Below, one piece after another: positions 2,446 to 19,679 of a DNA stretch of 64,000 nt. Both the position numbers and the translations under genes were made by a program. A model generated the notes under the pieces. It was not told the DNA's origin and ran no database searches. It worked only from the letters and a program-made list of their open reading frames with translations. Where the stretch lies: assembly GCA_964405715.1 (NCBI GenBank), contig CAYOOW010000002.1:23597-87596 (forward strand). Direction: 5' to 3'. The stretch comes from an uncultured Bacteroides sp. (GTDB lineage: Bacteria > Bacillota > Clostridia > Lachnospirales > Lachnospiraceae). Every line of letters starts with the position of its first letter. Position 1 is the stretch's first letter.

Positions 2446-2460
2446 GAATGAAATGGCTCC

Positions 2461-3117: not shown

Positions 3118-3206
3118 GGTTATCCTCCCAATTTGAAAGCAGATTTACATGTTCCTTTTGTGTTCATGTACATCTGTTTGTAGTATATAATAGTTTGTCA
3201 AAAAAG

Positions 3207-3261
3207 TGTATCGAAAATGTATCAAATGTATCAAAATATGCTTGAAAGATACAAAATTGAT
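3207..3261 (+). promoter_or_regulatory. Candidate response-regulator operator: three direct TGTATC hexamers (3207, 3218, 3227) plus the inverted AGATACAAAATTGAT 15-mer (3247-3261)
   Basis: Read directly in the divergent intergenic region between the RR gene and lipoprotein gene 1. The identical 15-mer recurs upstream of lipoprotein gene 2. Confidence 0.4.
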
Positions 3262-3345
3262 GCAATTTATTTTATAATAAATATAAAAGATGTTTTTTAT
3301 ATAACACGAAAATGAAATCTATTATTATGCGAGAGGGGTAAAGAT

Positions 3346-4854
3346 ATGAGAAAAAATAAAAAAGGAAAGTGTTACAGAACCATTTTCAGCATAACACTTA
3401 TACTGTCATTTGTCATTGTCGGCTGCGGGAAGACAGACAGCAGTCAGATCGAGGCTGATATACAGGAAGTGGATGATGGCATCGGTACGTCTACGGACGC
3501 TGCCGTTGCCGATATCTCCGGTGAAATCCCGGAGCAGCTTACATATGAGATAGCAAATGCTGATGGCAGCATCTCCATTGACGTTGACGCGGAGGTGATT
3601 GTGCCGGAGGTGGAATCGTACAGTGTGTATGAGGAAAAACCGATTGCATTTGATGATGATTTTCTGAAAACACTGGCGGGAAATCTCTTCGACGGCGGTA
3701 TATATGAGCAGATAAAGCCGGCATGGATGTGCACGCAGGAGGAGTTTGCGACAGAACAGGAATATGTAAAGGCACTTACCCAACGATATGCGGGGCAGGT
3801 GGAGCTGCCGGGATATATACCGGGATGGTTACATAATCTGTATTATCATTATAATGAGATGAGCTACGATGGAAGCATGGTGGCAGAGCTTACAGAGGGA
3901 CAGCTGATTTACAGTTACATGGCATCATATGATATAGACGGAGAAACAATAACAGAGTGTTATGATAATTGTACATTGCGGGGAACTGTGGATGGTGAGG
4001 AGTGGATTCTTTACTATGAGAATTTTATTCCTAGCCCTTATCTTGATTCCGGTGTTCATGGGTCCGTTTACTCAGGGGGAACAATTTGCAGGCTGGTGAT
4101 TGCGCCTGTAAATCAAAAATATTATGGAGACTACAACATGGTACAGATGAGCAGCCCGGAAAATTATCTGGATACAACCACATATGGAGAGAATGTCAGT
4201 GATGAAACACTGTGCAGACAGATGGCATATGATTTTGTGGAAAAGCTTGGTTTGTCAGATGATATGGAGATAGTCTATGCAAATAATTATATTGTGACGG
4301 ATGAAGAGGAAGGCAGCATGCTTGACGGATACAGGATGTATCTGCTTCCTGTTATAAATGGAGTGCAGAATTATTTCAGCGACACGGGTTGTGTTGGCAC
4401 GGAAAAGGAGACGGATACAGAGGATGACGAGGAGTCGGGTTATCTGGTTGCTCTTCAGGAGTATATTGCGGTCGATGTGTCCTCTGAGGGCGTATGTGGT
4501 GTTCTTATCGGAAATCAGTATGAAATGGGAGAATGTATGACGAAGCAGGCGAATATGCTGACATTTGAACAGATTGACATGATAGCACAGGAGTATATGC
4601 AGGAGTACGTAAACGTGACTTTTAATACGGAATATTTGGTTGAAAACATAGAGCTTTCCATTGACAGAGTAGAGCTTTCCTATGCAACAATACAGTATGA
4701 GGAGGGATATTCAATCGTTCCGGTGTGGATGTATTACCTGGAATATGATAAAAAACGTATGTTTCATGAGGCGTTCTTTGGCATAAATGCATTGGATGGC
4801 AGTATTGTCACAATTATGCATATCGGAAACTATGATTATATGTTTTATCGTTAA
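3346..4854 (+). CDS. Lipoprotein of unknown function (paralog A, 502 aa)
   Basis: RBS GAGAGGGG 7 nt upstream. Signal peptide plus lipobox (LSFVIVGC-GK). It shares blocks with the next gene (IPEQLTYEI/IPEHLTYTL, CTLRG, LDGYRMYL/LDGYRFIF, GINALDGSIV/GVNALDGSIV). Confidence 0.85.
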   Translation: MRKNKKGKCYRTIFSITLILSFVIVGCGKTDSSQIEADIQEVDDGIGTSTDAAVADISGEIPEQLTYEIANADGSISIDVDAEVIVPEVESYSVYEEKPIAFDDDFLKTLAGNLFDGGIYEQIKPAWMCTQEEFATEQEYVKALTQRYAGQVELPGYIPGWLHNLYYHYNEMSYDGSMVAELTEGQLIYSYMASYDIDGETITECYDNCTLRGTVDGEEWILYYENFIPSPYLDSGVHGSVYSGGTICRLVIAPVNQKYYGDYNMVQMSSPENYLDTTTYGENVSDETLCRQMAYDFVEKLGLSDDMEIVYANNYIVTDEEEGSMLDGYRMYLLPVINGVQNYFSDTGCVGTEKETDTEDDEESGYLVALQEYIAVDVSSEGVCGVLIGNQYEMGECMTKQANMLTFEQIDMIAQEYMQEYVNVTFNTEYLVENIELSIDRVELSYATIQYEEGYSIVPVWMYYLEYDKKRMFHEAFFGINALDGSIVTIMHIGNYDYMFYR

Positions 4855-4871
4855 GGAGAATGGTATCCGGC

Positions 4872-4903
4872 AGATACAAAATTGATTTTACAATTCATGT
4901 ATC
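4872..4903 (+). promoter_or_regulatory. Second copy of AGATACAAAATTGAT (4872-4886) followed by TACAAT (4889-4894) and TGTATC (4898-4903)
   Basis: 15/15 identity with 3247-3261. It lies in the 91-nt gap before lipoprotein gene 2. Confidence 0.4.
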
Positions 4904-4945
4904 AGGTTGGAATGCGAGAGAATAATATGAAAAGGAGAGATATAA

Positions 4946-6394
4946 ATGAAGCGAAACGTTTGTTGGAATACAGGTTATAAGGTGAGAATAAACAGGCAGA
5001 ACAGGAAAAAACGAGCGGGCAGCAGGAGGGCTTTTGCAATTTTGCTGGCATGTCTGTTTTTGTTTTCCGGCTGCGGAAAAAGGGAAAAACTGGAGGAGGA
5101 CATGAGCAGGGTTGACACAGATATAAGCTCGGATTCGGATGCAGGGAAGGAGACTGTAGATATTCCCGAGCATCTGACCTATACTCTGGGCACATCGGGC
5201 TATAAATTTAATGTGGATGCAGATGTTACAGCTGCCGGTTATCAGAATGTGAAGGTCTATGAACAAAATCCCGGTACCGTGGATGATGAGTATCTTAAAA
5301 ATCTGGCTGAGCATATATTTGACGATGGGGAATATGAGGTGATAAAACCATATAATCTTTGTTCGATGGAGGAGCTACAGGAGGAAAACCAGTTTTTGCA
5401 GGAGCTGTATGAGGAGGCAGGCAAGGACGAGTATCCCTCATGGAAGATAGATGCATATATTGACAACTATAATGAAGAAAATGTGTCGGAGCTGCCGGAG
5501 GGGACATTAATATACCATTATTATGAAGAAACTTTCGAAGAGGGAACAATAGGTTTTGAAAGCTGCACACTGCGTGGGCTGGTGGACGGCAATATGGCGG
5601 AGCTGCGTTATCAGTCAACGGAGGGAGAATCCGGTACGCTTTATGTTCGCAGATATGTGTGTGATCATGTATATAAGAACTGTAATACAGAATATGAGCT
5701 TGCCTCTACCTTGTATGGAGAAAATTCATGCAATCTGGAGGAGGCTTCCCGCACAGCACAGGATATCATAGATAATATGGGATATACGGATATGAAGCAG
5801 CTTGCTGTGCAGCACAGGGTGATAAACGATGGATCTGAGGCAGAGCCGGAGACTAGCATATATTTGGACGGATACAGGTTTATTTTTGTGCGGGAGACGG
5901 ACGGAATCGAAAATATATTAGGCGAAATGCCATATGCTGTAATCATCAATGACAGCGTTGGGGAGGATATAGACGGTCTTCCGGGAGCCTGTCAGGAATT
6001 TATTTCTGTTGAAATTGATTCAACAGGAGTGGTTGGCATCACTTTTGGAATGCGATATGAAAGGGGCGAGCAGCTGTCAGACCAGCCGAGCATGCTGTCC
6101 TTTGAGCAGGTGGACGCAATCGCGCAGGACTATATGAATGATAAGTTGGAATTTTATAATCAGCATTCCGATGATTATACTTTCCAGATTGTTGCGGTAC
6201 GTCTGGGATATGTTACTCTGTTGTACGATACGCAGTACACATTGGTGCCGGTCTGGGTGTATGTGAAGGAGAATGACTTTGCAGACCAGACGCTTGACAG
6301 CATATCATTCGGCGTTAATGCACTGGATGGCAGCATCGTGTTGTTTGAATATGATAATGTATATGGAAATCCCAGTGAAAATTATTTTTATTAA
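4946..6394 (+). CDS. Lipoprotein of unknown function (paralog B, 482 aa)
   Basis: RBS AAAGGAGAG. Lipobox LFLFSGC-GK. Collinear similarity to 3346..4854. Confidence 0.85.
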   Translation: MKRNVCWNTGYKVRINRQNRKKRAGSRRAFAILLACLFLFSGCGKREKLEEDMSRVDTDISSDSDAGKETVDIPEHLTYTLGTSGYKFNVDADVTAAGYQNVKVYEQNPGTVDDEYLKNLAEHIFDDGEYEVIKPYNLCSMEELQEENQFLQELYEEAGKDEYPSWKIDAYIDNYNEENVSELPEGTLIYHYYEETFEEGTIGFESCTLRGLVDGNMAELRYQSTEGESGTLYVRRYVCDHVYKNCNTEYELASTLYGENSCNLEEASRTAQDIIDNMGYTDMKQLAVQHRVINDGSEAEPETSIYLDGYRFIFVRETDGIENILGEMPYAVIINDSVGEDIDGLPGACQEFISVEIDSTGVVGITFGMRYERGEQLSDQPSMLSFEQVDAIAQDYMNDKLEFYNQHSDDYTFQIVAVRLGYVTLLYDTQYTLVPVWVYVKENDFADQTLDSISFGVNALDGSIVLFEYDNVYGNPSENYFY

Positions 6395-6451: not shown

Positions 6452-7456
6452 ATGGGAAGAAAGAAATTGATACCGCTTTTGGCGACAGCAGCACTTCTTT
6501 TCACCGGTTGCGGAAATGGGGAGAAAATACATGAGGCAAAGGTGAACGTCCCGGAGTACGAAAAAATAATATATGATTCAGTTGAAGCCTGCCGTGGGGA
6601 TATCACACCGGTTCTTACGCTTAAACTGTCAGCGGTAAGCTATGAGAAGAAATCCTATTATCCTCTCTATGATGATATGGAGGTGGAAAGTGTAAATGTG
6701 GCTGTCGGTGATAAGGTAAAGAAGGGTGATGTTCTGATTACCTTTAAGTCGGGTGATATCGCTTCACAGATAAAGGAATATCAGAATCAGGTAGAACAGA
6801 ATAATCTTCTGATTGACCATTATACACGGCTGTCCCAGCTGGATGCATCGGTGGATTACAGCGCTGATCTGGCACGGCTTGGGGAGGACACGAAGGTTGC
6901 CAATCTGTATATACAGGAGCTTCAGGCAAAATTATCCTTCTACAGCATATGTGCGGAGGATGACGGAAGCGTATATATACTATCAGATTTACTTGATTAC
7001 GGGACGGTCGGTACATCAAATAATCTTATCACGCTGATATATGGAAACGGACAGTTCGAGGCGGAGACGACGGATGATTTTGATTTTCAGGTGGGTGAGA
7101 CATATATCGCCACATACGGAGTTGCCGAATATGAGTTGGAATTAATCTCTGTTGAGGAGAAGGGGGAGGATGTAAACGGAGAGACAGTCAGGACACTTCG
7201 ATTTCAGGCCGCGGCTGAAAATACGGATTTCAGCAACAGGGACAAGCTTACAATGACATTGGAAAAGCCGACGCTCACGGATGTCGTTTATGTACCCAAG
7301 GAATGTGTCTTTGATGTTGATGATGAGTACTATGTGTATTTGCTGGATGATGATGGTTTCAGAGATGCCGTCAGGGTGACGATAGGGAGCACCGTGGACG
7401 GATATACCGTGATTGAGTCAGGTTTAAACGAAGGAGACAGGGTGGTGATTCAGTGA
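6452..7456 (+). CDS. Membrane-fusion-protein (HlyD/MacA-like) lipoprotein, single module
   Basis: ORF 6404.. trimmed to the ATG at 6452 (RBS GGAGGAAAA). Lipobox LLFTGC-GN. Half-lipoyl motifs (VAVGDKVKKGDVLITF ... DDGSVYILSD) flank a helical segment. C-terminus FRDAVRVTIGSTVDGYTVIESGLNEGDRVV. Confidence 0.8.
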   Translation: MGRKKLIPLLATAALLFTGCGNGEKIHEAKVNVPEYEKIIYDSVEACRGDITPVLTLKLSAVSYEKKSYYPLYDDMEVESVNVAVGDKVKKGDVLITFKSGDIASQIKEYQNQVEQNNLLIDHYTRLSQLDASVDYSADLARLGEDTKVANLYIQELQAKLSFYSICAEDDGSVYILSDLLDYGTVGTSNNLITLIYGNGQFEAETTDDFDFQVGETYIATYGVAEYELELISVEEKGEDVNGETVRTLRFQAAAENTDFSNRDKLTMTLEKPTLTDVVYVPKECVFDVDDEYYVYLLDDDGFRDAVRVTIGSTVDGYTVIESGLNEGDRVVIQ

Positions 7457-9780
7457 TGAGAATGATAAAATATAAGAGAGGGCTGGCTTGTCTGGTTATG
7501 CTTGCCTTTGGGCTTGCGGGATGTGGGAAGAAGACGGTGGAGGTTCCGGAGCTGCTTGCGCCTTCTGCCGGCAATGAGTCATACAGACCGGTAGAGTATG
7601 GCGATGTGGGCGCAATCGATGTTGCGTATGGTACAGTTGTTCCTACTGAGTACTGTCATTTCTGGCTGACGCAGGTCACAATCAGAGAAATTCCGGTGGA
7701 TATCGGGGATTATGTGCAGGCGGGAGATGTTCTGGCGTATGCCGATATTGATGTCGCCCGTGAGACCATTGAGCAGCTTAATGCACAGCTTACACTTGAA
7801 AATTCAATATTTTCGGTTGATGAGGAGATATATCAGTTTAAGCATCAGGAGCTGGAATTGAAAAAGGCGGGTATGCAGGCGATTGCAGACGGAGCAGCCG
7901 AGGCACAGGCTGCTACGGACATTGCCGTGCTGGAGGAAAATCACAGATATGACACGCTGTTGCATCAGTACAGAGTAAAAGAGCTGAACGAAAGTATTGC
8001 AGAGCAGCAGGAGATTGTGACCGACGGAACCCTGGTTGCGCGAATATCAGGCTATGTGACATATGCCAAGGATATATCCTCAGGCGGTGCGGTAACCAAT
8101 GCAGAAAATGTTGTGATTGTGTCTGACTATGAGGATTGTTATGTCGAGATGACAGGCATTACTGTTTCGGAGGATTTCCAGAGAAAATGGATGCCGTATG
8201 ACAGATATTATACAGAGATAGCGGGAAAAAAATATGATTTGAAGGAATATGAATATGCGCCGAATGAGCTTGTTGTGATAGAGGATAAGGCGCTGTACCC
8301 GGATATGCGTATGCAGTTTGAGGATAAGAGCGCACTGCCCGAAGCGGGGACTAATATTCCTGTATTTATGACGGGAGATATCGTAGAGGATGTACTTGTA
8401 GTCGGAAATGATTCTCTGTATCAGGATTCACAGGGAGATTTCGTCTATGTGAAAAAGGATGACAGCAAGGAGCTGCGTTATGTCGAGCTTGGAAAATCAG
8501 GAGACAATTATACGGAGGTGATATCGGGGCTATCAGAGGGGGATATGGTGTATTACTCATCGGGCGCCATTTTGCCGGAGCAATATACGGAATTTGAAAT
8601 GCAGCCTTCCGATTATGAACCGAAGCGGACTTCCAACACATACAGTATTGAGAATACAAAGAACAAGATATACTATTCGGAGTATGAGGGACGGATTACA
8701 AGCCTCAATGTCGGTGAGGGGGATGCGGTAAGCGCGGGCGACCTCGTTTGTACGATTCAGACAAACGAGGGAAGTGCGAGATTGACGGAGCTTTCCAATG
8801 CAATCAATGATTTAAAACAGAGCTACCAGAATTCTGAGAAAGGATATACGGAACAGATACAGGCGATTGAGAATCAGATGGCGGCGCTTCTGGCACCACA
8901 GCCAACACCAGAACCGCAGCCAACACCAGAACCGCAGCCGGAGGAGACGGCTACCGGTACGGATGCGGTACCGGAGGAGCCCGGCACATCGGAGGAGCCC
9001 GGCACATCGGAGGAGCCCGGCACGTCGGAGGAGCCGCCGCAGGATCCGAATCTGTATCAGGAGCTTGCCTTGCAGATAGAGCAGATTAAGGCGGAGGAGA
9101 AGAAAAATACCTTGAACTATAATTATCAGCTTGGATGTCAGGAGGCTGAATATCAAAAGGCAAGCAAAAATAATAACGGAAGCGGCACGATAAATATATA
9201 TGCCGAGACAGCGGGTACGGTGACAGGCATCAACATCAATGAGGGGAAAAATGTGAAGGCGGGGGACCGCATGTTCAATATAGGCGTCGATGCTTCCAAC
9301 AAGGTGCAGTTCCGGAGCTCTGATGCTATTCATCTGAATCAGACATTGGTATTTTGTGTGGAGGATTCGGATAAGACCTACACCGGGAAGGTTTCCGGAA
9401 TAACAGGCGACAGTGCGAGGATATATGTCACTACCGTGGATGATAAGGTTTACTTGACCAACAACCTCTCGGACAGCAATATAAAAAGATATTATATCAG
9501 GATGGATGATGAAGCATTCTATGCTTCAGAGGATAAGTGTACGATAGAATATTCAATCAATTCTATAAAAAATACGTTCGTTCTGCCTGACGGGGTTGTC
9601 CATTCGGAGAAAGATGAAAAGGGGGAGAAGACATATTATTATGTGTGGAGGATTGTGGATGGCAATCTGGTAAAGCAATATGTCACAATAGCAATAGATG
9701 AATACAACGGTATGAAAAATGAGTGTGCAATCAATGGTCTTAAAGCCGGAGATATTCTTGCTCAGGATGAAAGTAAGTAG
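7456..9780 (+). CDS. Tandem (double) MFP/HlyD-like lipoprotein with a Pro/Glu-rich repeat insert
   Basis: The start ATG overlaps the previous stop (GTGATG); GTG at 7453 is also possible. Lipobox LAFGLAGC-GK. There are two successive sets of lipoyl-half / coiled-coil / lipoyl-half / beta-rich / ...GL-x-xGD-x-V motifs. Confidence 0.8.
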   Translation: MRMIKYKRGLACLVMLAFGLAGCGKKTVEVPELLAPSAGNESYRPVEYGDVGAIDVAYGTVVPTEYCHFWLTQVTIREIPVDIGDYVQAGDVLAYADIDVARETIEQLNAQLTLENSIFSVDEEIYQFKHQELELKKAGMQAIADGAAEAQAATDIAVLEENHRYDTLLHQYRVKELNESIAEQQEIVTDGTLVARISGYVTYAKDISSGGAVTNAENVVIVSDYEDCYVEMTGITVSEDFQRKWMPYDRYYTEIAGKKYDLKEYEYAPNELVVIEDKALYPDMRMQFEDKSALPEAGTNIPVFMTGDIVEDVLVVGNDSLYQDSQGDFVYVKKDDSKELRYVELGKSGDNYTEVISGLSEGDMVYYSSGAILPEQYTEFEMQPSDYEPKRTSNTYSIENTKNKIYYSEYEGRITSLNVGEGDAVSAGDLVCTIQTNEGSARLTELSNAINDLKQSYQNSEKGYTEQIQAIENQMAALLAPQPTPEPQPTPEPQPEETATGTDAVPEEPGTSEEPGTSEEPGTSEEPPQDPNLYQELALQIEQIKAEEKKNTLNYNYQLGCQEAEYQKASKNNNGSGTINIYAETAGTVTGININEGKNVKAGDRMFNIGVDASNKVQFRSSDAIHLNQTLVFCVEDSDKTYTGKVSGITGDSARIYVTTVDDKVYLTNNLSDSNIKRYYIRMDDEAFYASEDKCTIEYSINSIKNTFVLPDGVVHSEKDEKGEKTYYYVWRIVDGNLVKQYVTIAIDEYNGMKNECAINGLKAGDILAQDESK
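8896..9036 (+). repeat. In-frame tandem repeats: 18-nt unit CC(A/G)CAGCCAACACCAGAA x2+ (PQPTPE) and 18-nt unit GAGGAGCCCGGCAC(A/G)TCG x3+ (EEPGTS)
   Basis: Read directly. Near-perfect DNA-level repeats lie inside CDS 7456..9780. Confidence 0.9.
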
Positions 9781-9789
9781 GTGAAAAGG

Positions 9790-12591
9790 ATGCTTAAATT
9801 TATTAGAGAAAAAATAAAAAACAAATTATGGCTTACTGTTTGTCTGATGCTCGGACTTGTATTCCTTATTGCAGCTTTCTGCTGTCAGCCGATGTTTAAG
9901 GAGGGCTCTTTAAATAAGCTGTTAAACCGGACGTTTAATCAGTACATTGAGGACAACAACCGCTATCCGGCAATGATTGGGCGGAGCGGCTCCTATCAGA
10001 CAAAGAGTACGCCGTCTGTGTCGTTAATTTGTGACAAGATAAATGAATATCAGGCAATCTGGAGTAAATATCTCACGGATATTGATGTGTTAAACTGCCA
10101 GACAAGACTGAAGCTTACGGAGGAAACCAGTCAGGGCAGCTACGGCAGCAAGGGCAATTATCTGTCTGTAAGCCATATGCCGGATATGCTTTCTCATATT
10201 CAGATATTAAAGGGAACAGACTATGAGAGCTACAGTGGCTCGGATTATTATCCATGTATTATTTCTGAGAGCGTGATGGATCAGTGCGGGCTGATTGTGG
10301 GAGAAACAATAGATTTTGTACAGTGGAAGGATGACAGCGGAAATACGCTCAAGCTGGTAGTTGCCGGTATATTCAGGGAGCAGGACAGCACAGATTTATT
10401 CTGGTATACGGCTCCGAATGATTTCGAGAAGGAAATCTTTGTAAACGAAGCCGATTTTGATGAGATACTTGAAAAATTTGACGTGGGCACAGTGTATTAT
10501 GATCATGTTACGCTGCTCGATTACGGGGATATTCGGAACAGTAATGTGGATGATATTCTGTACTGTCTGGGGCAGTTTCAGGAGTTGGACAATAATTTTG
10601 TCGATACAATGCAGGACATGCTGAAAGATTTTGCGTCTGAGAGAAAATCGGTAAATGTAATGCTGTGGGTACTTGAATTGCCGATTCTGGGTATGGTGCT
10701 TGCATTTATCTACATGGTATCAGGACAGATTATCGAGACGGAGCGGAATGAGATAGCGATGCTGAAAAGCCGTGGTTTCAGCCGTGTCCAGGTGATTATA
10801 CTATATGCGGTTCAGTCAGGTGTTTTGGCAGTGGGAGGCATCCTTTTCGGCGTACCGCTTGGATATGGTTTATGTAAGCTTTCTGCCGAGACAACGGATT
10901 TCCTGACCTTTTCGGGTACGGATTCCAGCCTGTACAGGTTTGTGCCGATTATGCTGGTATATGGAGTGGTTGCGGCGCTGATTGGAATTGTTTTTATATT
11001 GATTCCGGTCGTTCGCTACTCCAATGTTTCCATTGTGGAGCACAAATCCGGTTATGTGGGAAACAAAAAGATGTTTTGGGAGAAATATTTTTTGGATATT
11101 CTGCTGCTGGGACTGTCTCTTTATCTATTGTACAATTTTAATCAGTCCATAGATAATCTTCGGGTGAAAGCGCTGGAGGGAAGCAAAATGGATCCTATGA
11201 TTTTTATGGATACGATTTTATTCATACTTGCTTTCGGACTGCTGACCTTGAGATTGATGCATTATCTGGTGAAGCTGGTTTATGCAATCGGTAAGAAAAA
11301 ATGGAAACCGGCGGCATATGTGTCGTTTTTGCAGATAACCAGAACCTTCAGCAGACAGGGATTTATTTCGGTGTTTATGATTTTAACCGTGTCCATGGGA
11401 CTCTTTAATGCCAATGCGGCAAGAACCATCAATCGGAATAACGAGGATCGTATTGTATATGAATGTGGAGCTGACGTAGTGCTACAGGAAAAATGGCAGG
11501 CAAAGCCATACCGCGATAGCAACTATAAGGTACGGTATACCTATATCGAGCCTGATTATGTGAAGTATACGCAACTTGTCTCCGAGGGATTATGTGACAG
11601 CGTGGCGCGAGTGATTCACTATGAACGGACGGAGGCAAGCGCCGGCGGTAAGAGCGTGACGGATTGCACGGTTATGGGAATTAATACCAAGGATTTCGGA
11701 GAGACGGCTTATCTGAAGGAGGAGCTGTATGGTGATGTTCACTGGTTTAATTGGCTGAATGCCATGGGACAGCGGGAGAACGGAGCGGTCATTTCACGCA
11801 ATCTCGCGGAGGCACTCGGGATAGAAGAGGGGAATGTGGTAAGCTTTAACGGGCTGACCAGTGGTGAGGTTGATACGGAACAGATCATGCGGTGCTATGT
11901 CTGTGCCATTGTGGATGCATGGCCGGGCTATGACCAGTATTATTATGAGGATGGGGAACAGAAAGAACGCTATCTGATTGTGGCAAATTATGCGGCGATG
12001 ACTAAAAATCTGGAAACAATTCCGTATGAGATATGGTGCAGGCTGAGTGAGGGCGTCACGGCTGACACCTTGTATGAAAAGCTGAAGGAGAGGGATATTA
12101 CGATAGAAAGCTATCAGAGTGTTCAGGATAACATCTACGATATGAAAAATTCACCTGATATCCAGATTACCAACGGTATGTTCACATTGGGATTTATCAT
12201 AGCGCTGGTTCTCTGTGGTGTGGGATTTCTGATATACTGGATATCCTCCATAAGACAGCGGGAGCTTTTGTTCGGTGTGTATCGTGCCATGGGTATGTCT
12301 GTCGCAAATGTCAATCATATGCTGGTAAACGAGCATATTTTCAGTACACTGCTGTCGGTGATAGCGGGCGGACTTGTCGGTATGGCGGCTACGTTCCTGT
12401 ACACCAAGCTGTTTGGAGTCGTGTATCTGCCGGAGAAACATAATCTGGATATTTACATTTATTTTGAGACCGGTGATATTGTGAAGCTGTTTGCGGTGAT
12501 TGCGGCAATGATAGTGATATGTATGCTGATTCTTCGCAGACTGATACGGTCCTTGAACATTACGCAGGCATTGAAGCTGGGGGAGGAATAA
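9790..12591 (+). CDS. Fused double-FtsX (MacB-type / type VII) ABC transporter permease, ~930 aa
   Basis: RBS AGGTGA 6 nt before the ATG at 9790 (GTG 9781 is an alternative). N-terminal TM, large extracytoplasmic domain, a 4-TM FtsX-like block (...AMLKSRGFSRVQVI...), further TMs, a second large extracytoplasmic domain, and a C-terminal FtsX block (...GVYRAMGMSVANV...). Confidence 0.9.
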   Translation: MLKFIREKIKNKLWLTVCLMLGLVFLIAAFCCQPMFKEGSLNKLLNRTFNQYIEDNNRYPAMIGRSGSYQTKSTPSVSLICDKINEYQAIWSKYLTDIDVLNCQTRLKLTEETSQGSYGSKGNYLSVSHMPDMLSHIQILKGTDYESYSGSDYYPCIISESVMDQCGLIVGETIDFVQWKDDSGNTLKLVVAGIFREQDSTDLFWYTAPNDFEKEIFVNEADFDEILEKFDVGTVYYDHVTLLDYGDIRNSNVDDILYCLGQFQELDNNFVDTMQDMLKDFASERKSVNVMLWVLELPILGMVLAFIYMVSGQIIETERNEIAMLKSRGFSRVQVIILYAVQSGVLAVGGILFGVPLGYGLCKLSAETTDFLTFSGTDSSLYRFVPIMLVYGVVAALIGIVFILIPVVRYSNVSIVEHKSGYVGNKKMFWEKYFLDILLLGLSLYLLYNFNQSIDNLRVKALEGSKMDPMIFMDTILFILAFGLLTLRLMHYLVKLVYAIGKKKWKPAAYVSFLQITRTFSRQGFISVFMILTVSMGLFNANAARTINRNNEDRIVYECGADVVLQEKWQAKPYRDSNYKVRYTYIEPDYVKYTQLVSEGLCDSVARVIHYERTEASAGGKSVTDCTVMGINTKDFGETAYLKEELYGDVHWFNWLNAMGQRENGAVISRNLAEALGIEEGNVVSFNGLTSGEVDTEQIMRCYVCAIVDAWPGYDQYYYEDGEQKERYLIVANYAAMTKNLETIPYEIWCRLSEGVTADTLYEKLKERDITIESYQSVQDNIYDMKNSPDIQITNGMFTLGFIIALVLCGVGFLIYWISSIRQRELLFGVYRAMGMSVANVNHMLVNEHIFSTLLSVIAGGLVGMAATFLYTKLFGVVYLPEKHNLDIYIYFETGDIVKLFAVIAAMIVICMLILRRLIRSLNITQALKLGEE

Positions 12592-12592
12592 C

Positions 12593-13279
12593 ATGGAAGA
12601 TATCATGATTGCAGAAAATATAGTAAAATGTTTTAAAACCGGTGGAGAGGATTTTTATGCTTTGAAGGGTATCAATATGGAGGTAAGCCGGGGCAGGCTT
12701 ACTATCCTGAAAGGGCGCTCCGGTTCGGGCAAGACGACGCTTCTGAATGCGTTGAGTACTCTGGATGAACCTACCTCAGGTGAGGTTTATTTTGACGGGC
12801 GTGCATACAGCGAACTGACAGATAAGGATAAGGAGAAAATCAGAAGACAGGAAATTGGTTTTATCTTCCAGTCGTTTGCGCTGATTCCGATTATGAATGC
12901 ATATGAAAATGTTGATTTTGCGCTCCGGATGACGGGAAATATAGAGGACAGTGATGCGCATATCAGGGAGGTGCTTGCTCTGGTCGGTATGAAAGATCGA
13001 ATGCTGCACATGCCGATGCAGATGTCCGGTGGAGAACAGCAGAGGGTTGCCATTGCCAGGGCTGTCGTACACAGACCGAAGGTAATATTTGCAGATGAGC
13101 CGACAGGTGCCCTGGATACGGAGACAGGTATACGTGTCATGGCGCTGTTCCGGAAGCTGGTGGAGAAGGAGGGGATTACGATTGTGATGACGACGCATGA
13201 TCCGAACCTGATGGAGCTGGGCGATATCATATATGAGATGAAGGATGGTGAGTTGGTTGACAGACGTGAAAATAACTGA
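12593..13279 (+). CDS. ABC transporter ATP-binding protein (NBD 1)
   Basis: Walker A GRSGSGKTT, Q-loop FQSFALIP, signature MSGGEQQRVAIARA, Walker B IFADEPTGALD, H-loop TTHD. RBS GGGGGAGG. Confidence 0.95.
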   Translation: MEDIMIAENIVKCFKTGGEDFYALKGINMEVSRGRLTILKGRSGSGKTTLLNALSTLDEPTSGEVYFDGRAYSELTDKDKEKIRRQEIGFIFQSFALIPIMNAYENVDFALRMTGNIEDSDAHIREVLALVGMKDRMLHMPMQMSGGEQQRVAIARAVVHRPKVIFADEPTGALDTETGIRVMALFRKLVEKEGITIVMTTHDPNLMELGDIIYEMKDGELVDRRENN

Positions 13280-13283
13280 TGAT

Positions 13284-14264
13284 ATGTTGGAACAGGAGAT
13301 ACCGGATGAACAGCCGGAGCCTGAGACGGATATGGAGGGAGAGGAAGAGGATGCAGACCTGATTGAATGTGACGGTCTTGTCAAGATATATAAGACGAAG
13401 GAAATTGAGGTTATGGCGCTTCAGGGGCTTGACCTCACCATCAAACGCGGAGAACTGATGTCCGTCATCGGAAAGAGCGGAAGCGGAAAAAGTACGCTTA
13501 TGAATATTGTGGGAGGATTGGAAAAACCGTCCGCCGGAAGGATTGTCGTAGCCGGAAAAAATCTGTCAGAGCTCTCGGAGAAGGAAATGGTGGAATACCG
13601 CAAGAACATAATCGGCTTTGTGTGGCAGCAGAGCGGGCGAAATTTATTTCCGTATTTGAATTCCGTGGAAAATATAGAGGCAACCATGAATTTCAGCGGA
13701 ATGAAAGCGAAGGAGAAGCGTAACCGCGCGCTGGAGCTGCTTGAGATGGTCGGAATGAGTCATAAGAAGGATTCTTATCCAAACCAGATGTCCGGTGGAG
13801 AACAGCAGAGGGTTGCAATCGCCGTTGCGCTGGCAAACAATCCGCAGATACTGCTTGCCGATGAGCCTACGGGTGCGGTGGATACAAAAACCTCCAGCAT
13901 GATACAGGATTTGTTCCGCAAGCTGAATCTTGAGCTCGGTATCACAATCATTATAGTAACGCATGATATAAATCTTGCAAATAAGGTCGACCGTGTGGTC
14001 ATGATTTCGGATGGTAAAATCAGTACGGAAAAGATTATGAAGGAAAAATATCGTGCACAGATAGACCAGCTTTCCTCTTCCGATCTGCATGTCGATTCTC
14101 ATGAGGAATATTCAGTTATGGATAAGGCGCATCGTGTACAATTAAGTGCAGATATACTTGATGCTGCCGGAATTGATTCCAATAAGGTGCGCATATCCGT
14201 GGAGGATGGAAGGGTTGTCATAGTCGGTGGAAACAGCACAAATTCTTCCGAAAATAAAGGATAA
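13284..14264 (+). CDS. ABC transporter ATP-binding protein (NBD 2) with an acidic N-terminal tail and ~85-aa C-terminal extension
   Basis: Walker A GKSGSGKST, signature MSGGEQQRVAIAVA, Walker B LLADEPTGAVD, H-loop VTHD. The start is uncertain (ATG 13245, 13284 or 13332). Confidence 0.9.
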   Translation: MLEQEIPDEQPEPETDMEGEEEDADLIECDGLVKIYKTKEIEVMALQGLDLTIKRGELMSVIGKSGSGKSTLMNIVGGLEKPSAGRIVVAGKNLSELSEKEMVEYRKNIIGFVWQQSGRNLFPYLNSVENIEATMNFSGMKAKEKRNRALELLEMVGMSHKKDSYPNQMSGGEQQRVAIAVALANNPQILLADEPTGAVDTKTSSMIQDLFRKLNLELGITIIIVTHDINLANKVDRVVMISDGKISTEKIMKEKYRAQIDQLSSSDLHVDSHEEYSVMDKAHRVQLSADILDAAGIDSNKVRISVEDGRVVIVGGNSTNSSENKG

Positions 14265-14294
14265 ATTACAGTATTGCCGCAACAGATTAAATAT

Positions 14295-14480
14295 ATGGGG
14301 CTGTCTTATTCAGATGATATGATATGGTTATATGTATGATGCGGGAAAACCGTTTGCGAACGCCGGTACTTAGCGAGGTACTTTCGAGCTTAGTACCGCT
14401 GCGTGAGCGACCGAGCGAAAGCGGGTTTTCCTGCATCATACATATAACCATATCATGTCATCTGAATGGGGCAGCCCCAT
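14295..14480. repeat. 186-nt near-perfect palindrome (about 65-nt arms, inner secondary hairpin), non-coding; REP/MITE-like element
   Basis: The left arm ATGGGGCTGTCTTATTCAGATGATATGATATGGTTATATGTATGATGCGGGAAAACC... is the reverse complement of the right arm ...GGTTTTCCTGCATCATACATATAACCATATCATGTCATCTGAATGGGGCAGCCCCAT, with few mismatches. A T6 run lies at 14491-14496. Confidence 0.9.
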
Positions 14481-14517
14481 AATTATACCCTTTTTTGTGA
14501 AATAACAATGAACTCTA

Positions 14518-14545
14518 TTGACTTGTTTTGGCTTCATGTTAAAAT
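14518..14545 (+). promoter_or_regulatory. Sigma-A-type promoter candidate for the marR operon: -35 TTGACT, 16-nt spacer, extended -10 TGtTAAAAT
   Basis: Read directly; about 50 nt upstream of the MarR start. Confidence 0.45.
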
Positions 14546-14599
14546 AAATATTCATCGTGAGTAGTTTTATTTTAAACAAAAGAAAGCAGGGTGAACAGA

Positions 14600-15046
14600 A
14601 TGTCTGATATGGATGCTGTCATACAGAATAACATGCATCGATATAAACGGCTGAATGAGCGGAAAATTGAAAAGGTTATGCGTGAATATAATTTAAGAAA
14701 GATTGACCTGGAAATCATGATTTATCTGAAAGACTGTGGAGGAAAGAATACAGCGAAGGATATAGCCGCTACGGAGATGTTTACAAAGGGACATATATCC
14801 CAGTCTGTAAGTCGTATGCGGGATTTCGGATATATTGAGGTGAAGCAGGATGAAAAGGATCTTCGCCTGCAGCATTTGAAGCTTACGGAGGGCGCTAAAA
14901 GGATACTTGAAGATGTTATGTCTGTTAAACAGGAAGTGGAGGAATGTGTGTTTTCCGGTATAACGGAGGATGAGATATGTTTGCTGCAAAGGGTTTTACA
15001 GAAAATTAACAGCAATATATCTGCTGCCCTGGAAAAAAATTATTGA
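14600..15046 (+). CDS. MarR-family transcriptional regulator
   Basis: Winged-helix pattern (KNTAKDIAATEMFTKGHISQSVSRMRDFGYIEVKQDEKDLRLQHLKLT). ATG 14600, with GTG 14591 as an alternative. Confidence 0.85.
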   Translation: MSDMDAVIQNNMHRYKRLNERKIEKVMREYNLRKIDLEIMIYLKDCGGKNTAKDIAATEMFTKGHISQSVSRMRDFGYIEVKQDEKDLRLQHLKLTEGAKRILEDVMSVKQEVEECVFSGITEDEICLLQRVLQKINSNISAALEKNY

Positions 15047-15105
15047 TACAGGAAAAATATTTGATTGGATGGCTATAATATGTCAGCAGGATACGGAGGT
15101 ATGGT

Positions 15106-15501
15106 ATGAGACAGAAAATGATGGCTTTTATGCGCGGAAGATACGGGCTTGACCGGTTTTCAAACTTTTTGGTGATTGCTGCCTGTGTAATAATATTTAT
15201 AAATATCTTTTTTAAAAGTAATCTTGTCAGTTTATTTGCATTGGCGGTGTTTGTTTATGCCTACAGCAGGATTTTTTCAAGAAATATATCCAAAAGAAGT
15301 GCAGAAAATTCATGGTATCTGAATAAGACCTATGGTATCAGACGCTTTTTCCTGAGAGAGAAGGACAGGGCGAAAATCAGACGCACGCATCACATTTACA
15401 GATGTCCGAAATGCGGTCAGAAAATGAAGGTTCCGAAGGGCAGGGGCAGGATTGAAGTAACCTGTCCGAAATGCAGATATGAATTTGTAAAAAGGAGTTA
15501 A
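15106..15501 (+). CDS. Small 2-TM membrane protein with a C-terminal zinc ribbon
   Basis: Hydrophobic helices (FLVIAACVIIFINIFF, LVSLFALAVFVYAY), then CPKCGQ...18 aa...CPKCRY. RBS GGAGG. Confidence 0.75.
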   Translation: MRQKMMAFMRGRYGLDRFSNFLVIAACVIIFINIFFKSNLVSLFALAVFVYAYSRIFSRNISKRSAENSWYLNKTYGIRRFFLREKDRAKIRRTHHIYRCPKCGQKMKVPKGRGRIEVTCPKCRYEFVKRS

Positions 15502-15506
15502 GAGAG

Positions 15507-16556
15507 ATGTTTGGCTATGTTGCGGTCAACCAACCGGAATTAAAGGTGAAGGACTATAACAGATACAGGGAGTATTATTGCGGTGTATGTCATGCCCTGC
15601 GGGGGGCTTATGGTATATCGGGACAGATTTCTCTGACCTACGATGCAGCGTTTGCTGCAATATTACTTTCTGCGCTGTATGAGCCAAGGACAGAACGAAA
15701 CGCCTGCCGGTGTATTGTACATCCTGTGGGGAAGAAAAACTATCTGTGCAACAGCGCCATAGAATATGCGGCAGATATGAATCTGGTGCTTGGGTATTAC
15801 AAGTGTCTGGATGACTGGAAGGATGACAAAAATCTTATAAAGCTGTCCTACAGCGGTATGATACGCAGCAGGGTGAAGCTCATTAAACAGAAACGCGGAA
15901 GGAAGGTTGCGCAAATCCGCGATAAGATAAAGGAATTAGCAGCATGGGAAGCAGAGCTGCAGGGACGGACGGGCGATGCAAAAGACAGGGCGTGTGATAA
16001 TCAGGAGGGCGAAACCGGTGTGGAGAATATAGATGTTCCGGCCGGAATATTCGGTGATATTATGCGTGTTATTTTTTCGGTTAAGCCGCAGGAACTGTGC
16101 TGCAGCGATGCTGACGGAAACGGAAAGGATGATGCGGATGGGTGCCCGTCGTATTGCGGGGACTGGTCGCAGGAGCTTGGAGATTTCGGCTACCAGCTTG
16201 GAAAATTTATTTATATCATGGACGCATATGATGATGTCGGGGAGGATATCAAAAGAGGACGTTTCAATCCGTTTGCGGAAAAATACCGGAGTATGGAGAA
16301 AGAGACATTTCAGGCATGGGTTGGGCAGCTGCTGATGATGATAGCCTCAGATATGGCAAAGGTGTATGAAAAAATGCCTATCGTGGAGGAGGTTGGCATA
16401 CTCAGAAATATTATATATTCAGGTATATGGTGCCGTTTCTATCAGGATAGGGAAAATGCGGGAAAACATCATATGCAGACGGAGAAAAGGAATAAGACTG
16501 GCAAAGTGACAGGAAATATGTCCGGAAAGGATAGACAGTATGAGAGATCCATATGA
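15507..16556 (+). CDS. Uncharacterised protein, resembles the Clostridial DUF5685 family (from memory)
   Basis: N-terminus [32 protein letters not shown]. It is 5 nt after the previous gene and overlaps the next by 17 nt. Confidence 0.8.
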
Positions 16557-17214
16557 GGTTTTGGGCGTGAAAAGGGGCGCCAGCGAGGAAGAGGTAAAAA
16601 AAGCATATAGGACGCTCAGCAGAAAGTACCATCCGGATGCCAATATCAATAATCCGAATAAGGACAAGGCGGAGGAGAAGTTCAAGGAGGTTCAGGCTGC
16701 TTACAAGAGCATCATGGACGGCAATACGGGCGGTTCCGGCAGTGGATACGGAAGCGGAAACGGACATAGCGGATATGGCGGCTTCGGTGGTTTTGGCGGC
16801 TTCGGTGCCGGTCAGGACGCATGGAGACGCGCCAGAAATGAGGGCGGAGGAACCAGTCAGGATGAATCAAGGCTCGCCGCGGCGCAGAATTTTATTATGA
16901 ACCGTATGTTTGCGGAGGCATTGCGTACGCTGAGTGATATTGAGGACAGAAACGGCAGATGGTATTACCTGAGCGCGGTTGCAAATCTCGGTGCCGGAAA
17001 TCAGGCAACGGCGATGGAGCATATAGACCGGGCAATTGCCATGGAACCGGGAAATGCCGAGTATAGGCAGATGAAGGAGCGCATGCAGGGTGGAAACGAC
17101 TGGTATGTACAGCGCGGAACCGGGTACGGCATGCCAAGCTATAACAGCGGGAATTTCTGTTGCGATTATCTTCTTTGCAGTATGTGCACACCATGGGGCG
17201 GATTGTGCTGTTAA
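16540..17214 (+). CDS. J-domain protein with Gly-rich linker, TPR-like segment and Cys-rich C-terminus
   Basis: J-domain [33 protein letters not shown]; G/S/Y-rich linker; TPR-like [51 protein letters not shown]; tail [21 protein letters not shown]. Confidence 0.9.
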
Positions 17215-18209
17215 AATAACGAGAGAAATTTGCTTAGGACGGCAGGCTTGCTTTTTGTGCCGGGATATACGAAGCCGACCGTTCTTTTTGGTATTTCCTG
17301 ATTTAACTGCAGCTCGACGACCTGACCGGATGAAATATAGTCCGTGGCAAATTCCCGCACGACACTGGCAATGCCCATTCCGATTGCGGCAAAATCAAGC
17401 AGCAAATCAAGATTATTTATTTCAAGAATTTGATTTGGGTGTATGTTCTCCTTTTCCAGATAAGTATCAATATGCGTTCTGGTGATATTGTTTTTTTCAA
17501 GCATCATAAGATTTGACTTTTCCAAGATATCCTTTATGGATAAATTATCTTCACGCTTACTTTTATTTCCGGCATCCTCGTCGGGTAAAAATGATGTCAG
17601 ATTGCCCGCAAACAGCCATGGGTTTTCCGGCTGGGCGGTCTGTTCCTCATGCTCGCGCAGATGCAGGTTATCAAGATAAGCCTCTGTTGCGACGAAGGTG
17701 TCATGAATTTCGGTGAGCTCCTGATAGACGAAGCCTTTCGGAATGGTTGTCTCACATATCAGTCCGATATCAATTTTTCCGTCCTGTAAAAGCTTCATTG
17801 TGTTCACGGTGGAGTGGCAGTCAATGATTACCTTGATATGAGGATTTGCAACAATAAAGCTTTGCAGATAATCGAGCAGGATATGTTTGCACAGGGAGGT
17901 ACTGACGCCGATGCGGAGCTGTCCGATTCCCAGCTCATTCATCCTTTTAATCTCATCCTCGCCCTGCGTGATGCTTTCAAATGCATCTTTGATGTGCTCG
18001 TATAATATGCCGCCCTCGTCGGTCAGCTTTACGCCCTTTGAAGTCCGCTCGAACAGCTTTACATGAAGCCCTTCCTCAAGTCTTGATATGGATTTGCTGA
18101 TGGCAGGCTGGCTGATAAACAGGATGTCAGCAGCCTTGCTGATATTGCCTGTGCGTGCAACCGTGTAAAATACTTTATAGTTATTCAGATTATCGTACAT
18201 ATTTGTCAC
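17211..18209 (-). CDS. LysR-family transcriptional regulator
   Basis: N-terminal HTH ([35 protein letters not shown]) plus a substrate-binding domain. It is divergent from leuC. Confidence 0.93.
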
Positions 18210-18282
18210 CTCTGTTGGATTTATACTGCAATTTCACATGCATCAGTTGATTTTTTATTTCCGTTTACTTAACATGATTCTC

Positions 18283-18322
18283 AGCGTTATAATATCATAA
18301 GAGCGTTATAACTTCAAGTTAT
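18283..18322. promoter_or_regulatory. Candidate LysR-type operator: direct repeat AGCGTTATAA x2 (18283, 18302) and dyad ATAAC-N5-GTTAT (18308-18322)
   Basis: Read directly in the LysR/leuC divergent region. The T-N11-A-like dyad is typical of LysR boxes. Confidence 0.35.
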
Positions 18323-18344
18323 GGAGAATATTAAAAATATATAT

Positions 18345-18378
18345 TTTTATTATGGTTTACCTTATGATACAATGTATC
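18345..18378 (+). promoter_or_regulatory. Possible leuC promoter (weak -35 TTTTAT, extended -10 TGaTACAAT 18365-18373) overlapped by the perfect palindrome GATACA-A-TGTATC (18366-18378)
   Basis: Read directly. The -35 is poor. Confidence 0.3.
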
Positions 18379-18413
18379 AAATATTATTTTAGACAAAGAT
18401 GGAGGTAACGGAT

Positions 18414-19679
18414 ATGGGAATGACAATGACACAGAAGATTCTTGCGAAGCATGCAGGACTTCCGTCTGTTTCGGCAGGACAGTTGATTGAGGCAGAACTT
18501 GATCTTGTTCTCGGAAACGATGTGACAACTCCGGTAGCAATTCACGAGATGGAAAAATTTAATAAAAAGGAAGTTTTTGATAAGGAGAAGATAGCCCTTG
18601 TCATGGATCATTTCACTCCGAATAAGGATATTAAGAGTGCGGAGCACTGTAAATGCGTAAGACAATTTTCCGGTGAGAATGAGATTAAGAATTTTTTTGA
18701 TGTGGGAGAGATGGGAATTGAGCATGCGCTGCTTCCCGAAAAAGGTCTGATTGTTGCCGGTGAAACCTGTATCGGTGCGGATTCTCATACCTGTACATAT
18801 GGTGCCCTCGGTGCATTTTCTACCGGTGTGGGAAGCACGGATATGGCAGCCGGAATGGTGACAGGTAAGGCATGGTTCAAGGTTCCGTCAGCAATTAAGT
18901 TCAATATTGTGGGTGAGAAAGCACCATGGGTAAGCGGCAAGGATGTGATTTTGCATATCATTGGTATGATTGGTGTGGACGGCGCACTGTACAAGTCCAT
19001 GGAGTTTGCGGGTGACGGTATTAAGAATCTCACCATGGATGACAGATTTACAATTGCGAATATGGCGATAGAGGCAGGGGCGAAAAACGGCATATTCCCT
19101 GTGGATGAGCTTACAGAGGAGTATATGAAGGAGCATTCGGTCAAGCCTTATACAAAGTATGAGGCAGACGAGGATGCAGAGTATGATGAGGAGTACACGA
19201 TTGACCTTTCAACATTGAAACCGACGGTTGCATTTCCGCATCTTCCTGAGAATACAAAGACAATCGATGAGGTTGGAGATATTAAGATAGATCAGGTAGT
19301 AATCGGTTCGTGTACCAATGGACGTATATCGGATATGCGTATTGCGGCTGAAATCATGAAGGGAAGACATGCGGCAAAGGGAATTCGTGTTATCGTGATT
19401 CCCGGCACACAGGATGTTTACTTAAAGATGCTTGATGAGGGACTTACAAAGATATTTATAGAAGCGGGTGCAATTGTGTCAACACCGACATGCGGACCTT
19501 GCCTCGGAGGACATATGGGTGTCATGGCAGCCGGTGAGAGAACAGTTTCTACAACAAATCGTAATTTTGTGGGACGTATGGGACATGTTGATTCTGAGGT
19601 TTATCTGGCAAGTCCTGCAGTTGCAGCGGCATCAGCAATTACGGGCAAAATCAGCTGCCCTTGTGAGCTTGGGTTATAG
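18414..19679 (+). CDS. leuC: 3-isopropylmalate dehydratase large subunit
   Basis: Aconitase-family motifs ([23 protein letters not shown]). RBS GGAGG before the ATG at 18414. Confidence 0.95.

Follow-up and report, generated by a model that had tools for sequence, protein, structure and literature searches.

A conserved gene pair encoding a DUF5685 protein and a cysteine-string J-domain protein in Firmicutes: a possible membrane-proximal Hsp70 co-chaperone module

Dedicated J-domain proteins set the place and the target of Hsp70 work, but in bacteria other than E. coli few of them are understood. What, then, is the task of a J-domain protein whose gene starts inside the gene of a DUF5685 protein? 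The question is raised by four genes in a 64,000-nt stretch of DNA (here called the window) from an uncultured Bacteroides sp. (GTDB, Lachnospiraceae; assembly GCA_964405715.1, contig CAYOOW010000002.1, positions 23,597 to 87,596 of the forward strand). The genes are plus-strand open reading frames (ORFs) at 14591-15046 (gene 1), 15106-15501 (gene 2), 15507-16556 (gene 3), and 16540-17214 (gene 4), with intergenic distances of 59, 5, and -17 nt; the ORF list and the sequence both agree with the arrangement given in a first-pass annotation made from the sequence. That annotation read the genes as an operon for a MarR regulator, a zinc-ribbon membrane protein, a DUF5685-like protein, and a J-domain protein and proposed a specialized membrane-proximal chaperone system, an interpretation that our analysis supports; none of the outcomes that the annotation had listed as refuting it was observed. 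The module belongs to a known kind, the dedicated class C J-protein modules. We consider the chances to be even that it is an Hsp70 co-chaperone module that works close to the membrane and is dedicated to DUF5685 as its partner or client. Two features go beyond the first-pass annotation: the J-protein ends in a cysteine string, and DUF5685 has a predicted isoprenoid-synthase fold. A partner protein of this fold with a Cys3-His site and a bacterial cysteine-string J-protein both appear to be unreported.

We compared 80 loci from genomes, mostly of Lachnospiraceae, with 80 from metagenomes (retrieved with a deliberately distant alignment; GC content, 34 to 66%). The genome scan covered at least 600 stretches from a collection with one genome per species, and all counts below are out of the loci that had enough flanking sequence. 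We found that the J-protein gene immediately follows the DUF5685 gene in the same orientation in 140 of 143 loci, made up of 77 of 78 from genomes and 63 of 65 from metagenomes. The DUF5685 stop overlaps the J-protein start in 106 of 142 loci, mostly by 4, 8, or 17 nt. These loci, which come from gut and rumen samples, span GC contents of 33 to 66% and belong to Lachnospiraceae (Blautia and Coprococcus among them), other Clostridia, and Erysipelotrichaceae; the pair is present, for instance, in Longicatena (Erysipelotrichaceae; GC, 33%), in a low-GC Clostridia contig, and in a contig of 65% GC. The organisms that were identified are all obligate anaerobes from gut-type samples. Beyond lineage synteny, we found no other conserved neighbor of the pair. 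We concluded that the conserved core is DUF5685 followed by the J-protein. Of the triad that the first-pass annotation had drawn together from genes 2 to 4, the last two recur elsewhere as a pair, but the zinc-ribbon gene is optional. Likewise, the proposed four-gene operon holds as a module in its DUF5685-J core, but not in its MarR gene, which is confined to the clade of the window.

The J-protein of the pair has the following parts.

16540 to 17214, plus strand: gene 4, a class C J-domain protein of 224 amino acids (aa), which overlaps the end of gene 3 by 17 nt.
16540 to 16731, plus strand: J-domain with H31-P32-D33 (PF00226 and Foldseek).
16732 to 16851, plus strand: Gly/Phe/Tyr-rich linker, predicted to be disordered (predicted local distance difference test [pLDDT], <50 at residues 63 to 104; length-variable alignment columns).
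16858 to 17118, plus strand: TPR-like helical domain, residues 107 to 193 (pLDDT, 84 to 92; Foldseek).
17155 to 17211, plus strand: cysteine-string hydrophobic tail, 6 Cys in 19 residues (disordered in the AlphaFold2 [AF2] model; homolog tails).

The canonical J-domain with HPD that the first-pass annotation had assigned to gene 4 is borne out. It scores 74.5 bits against PF00226 DnaJ (cutoff, 27.8) and matches J-domain structures in Foldseek with target template-modeling (TM) scores of up to 0.82, and HPD is invariant in 30 J-protein homologs. Pfam found neither the DnaJ zinc finger (CxxCxGxG) nor the DnaJ C-terminal domains in gene 4, and the NCBIfam DnaJ equivalogs cover just residues 1 to ~100 (70 versus 377). 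By its domain content, gene 4 is a class C J-domain protein. Its TPR-like domain matched MamA, FKBP-TPR, and RPAP3 in Foldseek (probability, 1.0), with the Pfam TPR models remaining below threshold. The tail is the most unusual part. Homologs of every lineage carry 4 to 8 Cys in the last 35 residues (11 in Longicatena), and among 123 distinct homologs the median Cys content is 23% in the last 30 residues and 0% in the remainder. A G-x-(W)Y...YG-x-P motif is conserved just before the tail, and no fixed CaaX- or CC-type motif closes the tails, many of which finish with GG-x-PYY or a similar sequence. We found no report of a bacterial cysteine-string J-protein in the literature searched, and none of the reviews and surveys of bacterial J-proteins that we searched describes a J-domain-G/F linker-TPR-cysteine-string architecture. 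A comparison can be drawn with the eukaryotic cysteine string protein (CSP), in which a J-domain likewise goes together with a hydrophobic segment that holds a cluster of cysteines and serves membrane attachment (PMC4447612); in CSP, however, DHHC enzymes palmitoylate the string, which lies centrally, whereas here it is C-terminal and follows the TPR-like domain. There is no homology beyond the J-domain, and the likeness of gene 4 to the CSP type is architectural only.

The first-pass annotation had inferred a link to Hsp70. We found that a DnaK-family gene adjoins the module in 19 loci, in four orders, Z-D-J-H, D-J-H, H-Z-D-J, and H-D-J-Z (Z, zinc-ribbon gene; D, DUF5685 gene; J, J-protein gene; H, DnaK-family [Hsp70] gene). 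In one locus (L138, positions 257 to 5571), a perfect CIRCE (controlling inverted repeat of chaperone expression) box is followed by hrcA, grpE, dnaK, the DUF5685 gene, and the gene for a cysteine-string J-protein. Since dnaJ normally comes after dnaK in the CIRCE-hrcA-grpE-dnaK operon of Firmicutes, the DUF5685-J pair occupies the customary place of dnaJ there. In a Longicatena sp. locus (L169), two CIRCE operators (1259-1331, one mismatch each) precede clpB (1346-3889), and the pair follows 111 nt further on. Three of four module-adjacent DnaK-family proteins missed the strict prok_dnaK cutoff and passed PRK00290; thus, some of these genes look like extra copies. In a Coprococcus-like locus (L074), the DnaK-family gene follows a two-component system, and neither grpE nor hrcA was found beside the DnaK-family gene in the two loci examined for them (L074 and L083). 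In the window, we found no Hsp70, ClpB, or CIRCE near the module, and neither a CIRCE nor a CtsR operator upstream of the operon. The adjacency of DnaK-family genes, together with the gene order in L138, gives independent genomic support for a module that works with Hsp70.

Placement within heat-shock operons (CIRCE, hrcA-grpE-dnaK, and clpB) would also be expected if the J-protein, like DjlB/DjlC, were tethered to the membrane as a general proteostasis factor for many clients, and DUF5685 were an unrelated enzyme that merely shared its transcript. TPR is a generic protein-binding module, and DUF5685 can exist alone, both of which fit such a loose association. We nevertheless regard it as very unlikely. 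The two genes stay side by side in different classes, at different GC contents, and in four gene orders, in most cases with the stop of one overlapping the start of the other, and no other gene stays with either partner; proteins that act together typically show conservation of this degree.

The partner protein has the following parts, numbered by residue of gene 3. Conservation refers to an alignment of DUF5685 homologs (A1) and to a deliberately distant set (A3).

15507 to 16556, plus strand: gene 3, a DUF5685 protein of 349 aa with a predicted class I isoprenoid-synthase-like alpha fold (PF18937, AF2, and Foldseek).
15579 to 15722, plus strand: Cys3-His site, C25, C28, C69, and H72 (invariant in A1).
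15810 to 15824, plus strand: first Asp-rich motif, D102-D-W-K-D106 (DDxxD), at the C-terminal end of helix 83-107.
16221 to 16271, plus strand: second Asp-rich motif, D239-x3-D243-x3-D247, then G-x-F-N254-P255, at the C-terminal end of helix 221-249.
16092 to 16154, plus strand: variable Cys/Asp-rich insert, residues ~196 to 216 (gapped or variable columns in A1; pLDDT, <50 at 200 to 212).

What had been called DUF5685-like is a true member of the family. Gene 3 scores 295.3 bits against PF18937 (cutoff, 26.7; E, 5.7e-88; model positions 1 to 270 of 272), which also matches 30 of 30 aligned homologs. DUF5685 is soluble and ~280 aa long, and the family comprises 4,432 clusters at 90% identity (E ≤1e-5) and 5,958 representatives at 50% identity (profile search, E ≤1e-3). 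As the first-pass annotation had said, no function is described for it in the literature searched, where DUF5685 is mentioned once, in passing, and PF18937 not at all.

We found that the AF2 model of gene 3, built from 30 homologs (predicted TM score, 0.80), is all-helical save for a beta hairpin at residues 63 to 81. All 50 of the top 50 PDB matches listed by Foldseek are class I isoprenoid synthases, among them octaprenyl, farnesyl, and geranylgeranyl diphosphate synthases, terpene synthases, and the prenyltransferases MoeN5 and Ord1 (probability of up to 1.00, E of ~1e-2, and TM scores of 0.50/0.56 to E. coli octaprenyl diphosphate synthase). With moderate confidence, this model places DUF5685 in the class I isoprenoid-synthase alpha fold. 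The conserved residues are consistent with the assignment. D102 and D106 are invariant in A1 and A3, and D239, D243, D247, N254, and P255 are invariant and persist in the distant alignment. In the predicted all-alpha fold, each of the two Asp-rich motifs sits where a long helix ends on its C-terminal side, and the metal-binding motifs of class I isoprenoid synthases may lie at comparable positions. C25, C28, and C69 are also invariant in A3, with H72 in at least 90% of the sequences; C69 and H72 fall within the hairpin of the model, and the four residues form a putative metal site specific to the family. This extra site, the hairpin, and a second motif of the form DxxxDxxxD set DUF5685 apart from the class I isoprenoid synthase superfamily, including ComQ, PalQ, ChrPC-P, and Ord1. 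Because of the fold, the two invariant Asp motifs, which appear to be placed like the Mg2+/diphosphate motifs of prenyl diphosphate synthases and terpene synthases, and the Cys3-His set, DUF5685 is most likely an enzyme or ligand-binding protein that handles prenyl diphosphate.

The first-pass annotation had also pointed to a Cys/Asp-rich middle in gene 3. Such a stretch is present, but it is the variable insert listed above, predicted to be disordered, and we rejected it as a functional site because it is not a feature of the family. Two homologs (P0060 and P0098) contain internal tandem duplications of a DUF5685 segment (A1 columns 130 to 215 and 286 to 296), which are probably assembly or gene-call artifacts.

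A putative prenyl-diphosphate enzyme encoded beside a cysteine-rich tail invites a further explanation, in which DUF5685 is a protein S-prenyltransferase (a trans-isoprenyl-diphosphate-synthase-like fold with a possible thiol-activating zinc at the Cys3-His site) that lipidates the cysteine string of the coupled J-protein and so yields a membrane-tethered Hsp70 recruiter. The gene layout, with its frequent overlap, is like that of comQ-comX, an enzyme gene and then a substrate gene, and the fold matches that of enzymes that use prenyl diphosphates, including MoeN5 and Ord1. Every partnered J-protein has 4 to 11 Cys in its last ~35 residues and none elsewhere; the tail is predicted to be disordered, as a substrate peptide would be, and the G-x-(W)Y...YG-x-P motif before it could act as a recognition element. 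Among J-proteins, Ydj1 and DNAJA1 are farnesylated, and Ydj1 offers a likeness in its C-terminal lipidated cysteine, but it is eukaryotic. To our knowledge, however, no native prenylation of protein cysteines is known in bacteria. Eukaryotic J-proteins are lipidated, as in the palmitoylation of CSP on its cysteine string (PMC4447612). Peptide prenyltransferases of this fold are known (ComQ, PalQ, and ChrPC), but the characterized enzymes of this kind all modify tryptophan rather than cysteine (PMC13290415). In addition, the tails have no fixed CaaX- or CC-type end, DUF5685 proteins with all motifs occur in genomes without an adjacent J-protein, and both the zinc-ribbon protein and the Hsp70 adjacency are left unexplained. 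We consider this explanation quite unlikely. We also rejected a prenylation of tryptophan in the conserved WY that precedes the tail, since distant members have lost the W.

The third protein found near the core is encoded by gene 2.

15106 to 15501, plus strand: gene 2, a 131-aa membrane protein, predicted two-helix hairpin plus cytoplasmic C4 zinc ribbon (sequence and homologs).
15160 to 15276, plus strand: hydrophobic hairpin, residues ~19 to 37 and ~39 to 57 (read from the sequence).
15397 to 15483, plus strand: zinc ribbon, CPKC-16 residues-CPKC (C100-P-K-C103 and C120-P-K-C123).

The sequence agrees with the two transmembrane segments and CPKC...CPKC ribbon first ascribed to gene 2. The median of the maximal 19-aa Kyte-Doolittle window in the family is 2.22. 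Family members have an N-terminal FMxGRxGxD motif, of which GRxGxD is kept in 93 of 101 distinct homologs, and a basic YFRxFSRN...EN stretch. Both CxxC pairs, with exactly 8 residues after the last Cys, are kept in 100 of the 101, and 78 of them have F-x-K/R-x-S/T at the C terminus. Every Pfam zinc-ribbon model was below threshold on gene 2; thus, no named subfamily can be assigned to it. We found the zinc-ribbon gene in 67 of 79 genome loci and 41 of 72 metagenome loci (108 of 151 together), with a gap of 0 to 20 nt to DUF5685 in 82 of 109 loci; in two loci, it follows the J-protein gene instead of preceding DUF5685. We concluded that the zinc-ribbon protein is a frequent but optional member of the module. 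No alternative small membrane partner was consistently present in the loci without it. Eight such loci of one high-GC Clostridia lineage (L092, L095, L107, L124, L126, L136, L139, and L155) have a gene for a multi-pass membrane protein directly upstream of DUF5685, and this recurrent protein is YihY/BrkB-like by eye only.

The Cys3-His site, the cysteine string, and the C4 ribbon together could instead form a relay that passes a metal or an iron-sulfur cluster, with the J-protein and Hsp70 driving the transfer and the Asp motifs binding metal rather than diphosphate. The Cys3-His ligand set is invariant, and Cys/His ligand types are also used by IscU and mitoNEET-type clusters; the organisms identified are all anaerobes, and metal stress had already been proposed in the first-pass annotation. 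A J-protein/Hsp70 pair dedicated to iron-sulfur transfer has a precedent in HscB/HscA (PMC9596805 and PMC8215388). However, the J-protein is not HscB-like (TIGR00714, 20.1 against a cutoff of 46.75), and both the predicted fold of DUF5685 and the placement of the Asp motifs suit a diphosphate-binding enzyme. There was no iron-sulfur scaffold or metallochaperone among the 50 structural matches listed, and the neighborhood has no conserved isc, suf, or metal-transport genes. A CxxC...CxxH set is equally typical of structural zinc, and the restriction to anaerobes may reflect database sampling. We therefore consider such a relay unlikely.

A co-chaperone module dedicated to DUF5685 could work as follows. 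Through its HPD, the J-domain would activate the ATPase of DnaK, or that of the DnaK paralog that some lineages encode nearby, the TPR-like domain would dock the partner, and the cysteine-string tail would hold the J-protein at the membrane. The zinc-ribbon protein, where present, may serve as a membrane receptor or holdase and help to keep the assembly there. Hsp70 recruited in this way to DUF5685 at the membrane would fold, assemble, load, or recycle it, and DUF5685, as a predicted handler of prenyl diphosphate, would there meet its lipid substrate. The most likely client would be DUF5685 itself.

Dedicated J-proteins of several kinds offer precedents. As with HscB/HscA and IscU, Hsp70 would here be brought to one dedicated partner. 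Like that set and like DjlB/DjlC with HscC, gene 4 encodes a J-protein without the DnaJ client-binding domains and neighbors the gene of its partner; in some genomes, an Hsp70 paralog gene also lies next to it. It has no similarity to HscB beyond the J-domain, and the predicted fold of its partner is that of an isoprenoid synthase rather than an iron-sulfur scaffold. DjlB and DjlC, which act with HscC, are tail anchored (PMC8215388); gene 4 also ends in a hydrophobic tail, but this tail is a cysteine string instead of a plain transmembrane helix, and a TPR-like domain is present. AtcJ of Shewanella is an operon-encoded J-protein dedicated to cold adaptation (PMC6715715), to which only the J-domain matches (NF050028, 52 bits versus 150); its partner, domains, and taxa differ. 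The plant protein ORANGE (OR, or DnaJE1), whose DnaJ-type zinc finger comes after two predicted transmembrane helices, is an interaction partner of phytoene synthase (PMC12063368). Its conserved N terminus, two predicted helices, C-terminal Cys-rich zinc domain, and isoprenoid-synthase-fold partner give a layout like that of gene 2 plus gene 3. OR has a CxxCxGxG zinc finger, however, whereas gene 2 has CPxC...CPxC and no Pfam DnaJ zinc-finger match, and OR is localized to plastids and has no J-domain partner gene; gene 2 is not a member of the OR family, and we draw an analogy only, with no homology implied.

Several observations weigh against a co-chaperone module dedicated to DUF5685. The fold match is moderate, as the Foldseek E value of ~1e-2 and TM score of ~0.5 indicate, and at the sequence level none of the methods connected DUF5685 with an isoprenoid-synthase family. 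When 30 members were compared with Pfam at E values of up to 10, neither polyprenyl_synt nor SQS_PSY nor a terpene synthase model appeared, and no match to another family recurred; NCBIfam gave no match to DUF5685, and the PDB profile search gave chance matches only (CBL-B and RRP6), with one further chance match for the second-motif segment. The hhalign comparisons of DUF5685 with E. coli IspB and IspA were nonsignificant; against IspB, only a local segment sets D239..D243 on D211..D215 of the second Asp-rich motif (SARM) of IspB, at a nonsignificant probability of 0.3%. No polyprenyl synthase gene for a comparison profile was found in the window or the loci. A 14-residue DUF5685 segment, which we presumed to resemble the phytoene/squalene synthase motif RDVGEDxxxGRxYLP, could not be confirmed as such. 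DUF5685 with all of its motifs kept occurs without an adjacent J-protein in Adlercreutzia equolifaciens and one other high-GC contig, and members without a J-protein partner have D102/D106, D239/D243/D247, N254, and C25/C28/C69/H72; thus, the core function does not need a J-protein next door. About one third of the loci are missing the zinc-ribbon gene. The tail is of borderline hydrophobicity for a membrane span (median maximal 19-aa Kyte-Doolittle window, 1.46, with 29 of 123 tails reaching 1.6), and simple anchoring leaves its extreme Cys content unexplained. Finally, the loci are not phylogenetically independent, so that our counts overstate the number of independent observations and show breadth, not statistics.

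Near the lone DUF5685 gene of A. equolifaciens (L161/L162, 6352-9767) lie genes for a UbiE/MenG-type methyltransferase, a molybdopterin oxidoreductase with NrfD, a ferredoxin, and a TorD-like protein. A link to menaquinone was rejected, since its sole support is this one UbiE neighbor, with an opposite-strand gene in between.

Upstream of the module lie the regulator gene and a promoter-like site.

14591 to 15046, plus strand: gene 1, MarR-like winged-helix regulator (HTH_27 above cutoff, MarR_2 below).
14518 to 14545, plus strand: sigma-70-like promoter candidate, TTGACT-16 nt-TAAAAT with an upstream TG (10 of 12 consensus matches).

Gene 1 has a winged helix (HTH_27, 29.5 bits versus a cutoff of 22.2), but its assignment to MarR by the first-pass annotation falls short of the MarR_2 cutoff (17.7 versus 27). 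Its best NCBIfam match is BilQ (46 versus 125), and an ortholog of ~60% identity has a recorded MarR_2 match. A start at GTG 14591 would give 151 aa, and one at ATG 14600, with GGGTG 6 nt upstream, would give 148 aa, the length called in close relatives; the ATG is the likelier start. A MarR gene precedes the triad only in the clade of the window (L003, L004, and L163 to L166). We rejected it as a component of the module, since it accompanies the triad in just 2 of 80 genome-scan loci and in the close relatives L163 to L166. It is a lineage-specific addition outside the conserved module, and the ABC-transporter and LysR/leuCD flanks are likewise kept in the clade that shares it.

The good promoter (TTGACT-16-TGtTAAAAT) that had been described ahead of gene 1 is present and is the top-scoring site in our promoter scan of 14200-17600. 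As a class, though, promoter-like sites are not enriched (6 found versus 8.1 expected from shuffles); thus, the site is a plausible consensus match and candidate promoter, not proof of one. Among public sequencing runs, we found none that contains this region. A perfect TATAAT at 15075-15080, inside the 59-nt gap between genes 1 and 2 and 25 nt before ATG 15106, has no acceptable -35 element at a spacing of 16 to 18 nt; it might be an internal promoter remaining from an ancestral three-gene unit. Between the end of an ABC ATPase ORF (14264) and the promoter-like site sits a 214-nt palindromic element (14281-14494) with 71-nt arms, 85% complementary and 72 nt apart. We found no second copy of its arm sequence in the window and no Rfam match to it, nor any Rfam family in 13800-18500.

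Further upstream, at 7453-14264 on the same strand, are ORFs for two ABC ATPases and for two very large permeases of the FtsX type (775 and 936 aa), a cluster syntenic with the module only in the clade of the window (L163 and L165). Downstream, a convergent LysR-type ORF on the minus strand (17211-18209) overlaps the stop region of the J-protein gene by 4 nt at its end, with no intrinsic terminator detected between the two, and a leuC-like aconitase-family gene follows at 18399-19679. The LysR/leuC-like flanks are retained in relatives of ~60% identity (L165 and L166). The base composition of the module is that of its flanks; thus, the module is not an island. PADLOC gave no match to genes 2 to 4, a viral-contig scan gave no relatives, and PHROGs matched only the J-domain, plus one weak match to the zinc ribbon. 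On these results, we ruled out a defense system or a phage-borne module.

The module has a wide reach, with ~6,000 DUF5685 clusters at 50% identity across gut and rumen Firmicutes. The fold assignment turns DUF5685 into a biochemical question, namely, whether a prenyl diphosphate is bound or turned over. If the cysteine string were prenylated by DUF5685, this would be a protein prenyltransferase of a new kind, with a terpene-synthase- or trans-IDS-like fold and an added zinc site, and the module would be the first native bacterial system for the prenylation of protein cysteines. It would also be a bacterial counterpart of the lipid-anchored J-proteins of eukaryotes, such as CSP and Ydj1, with Hsp70 tied to the membrane in dominant gut Firmicutes.

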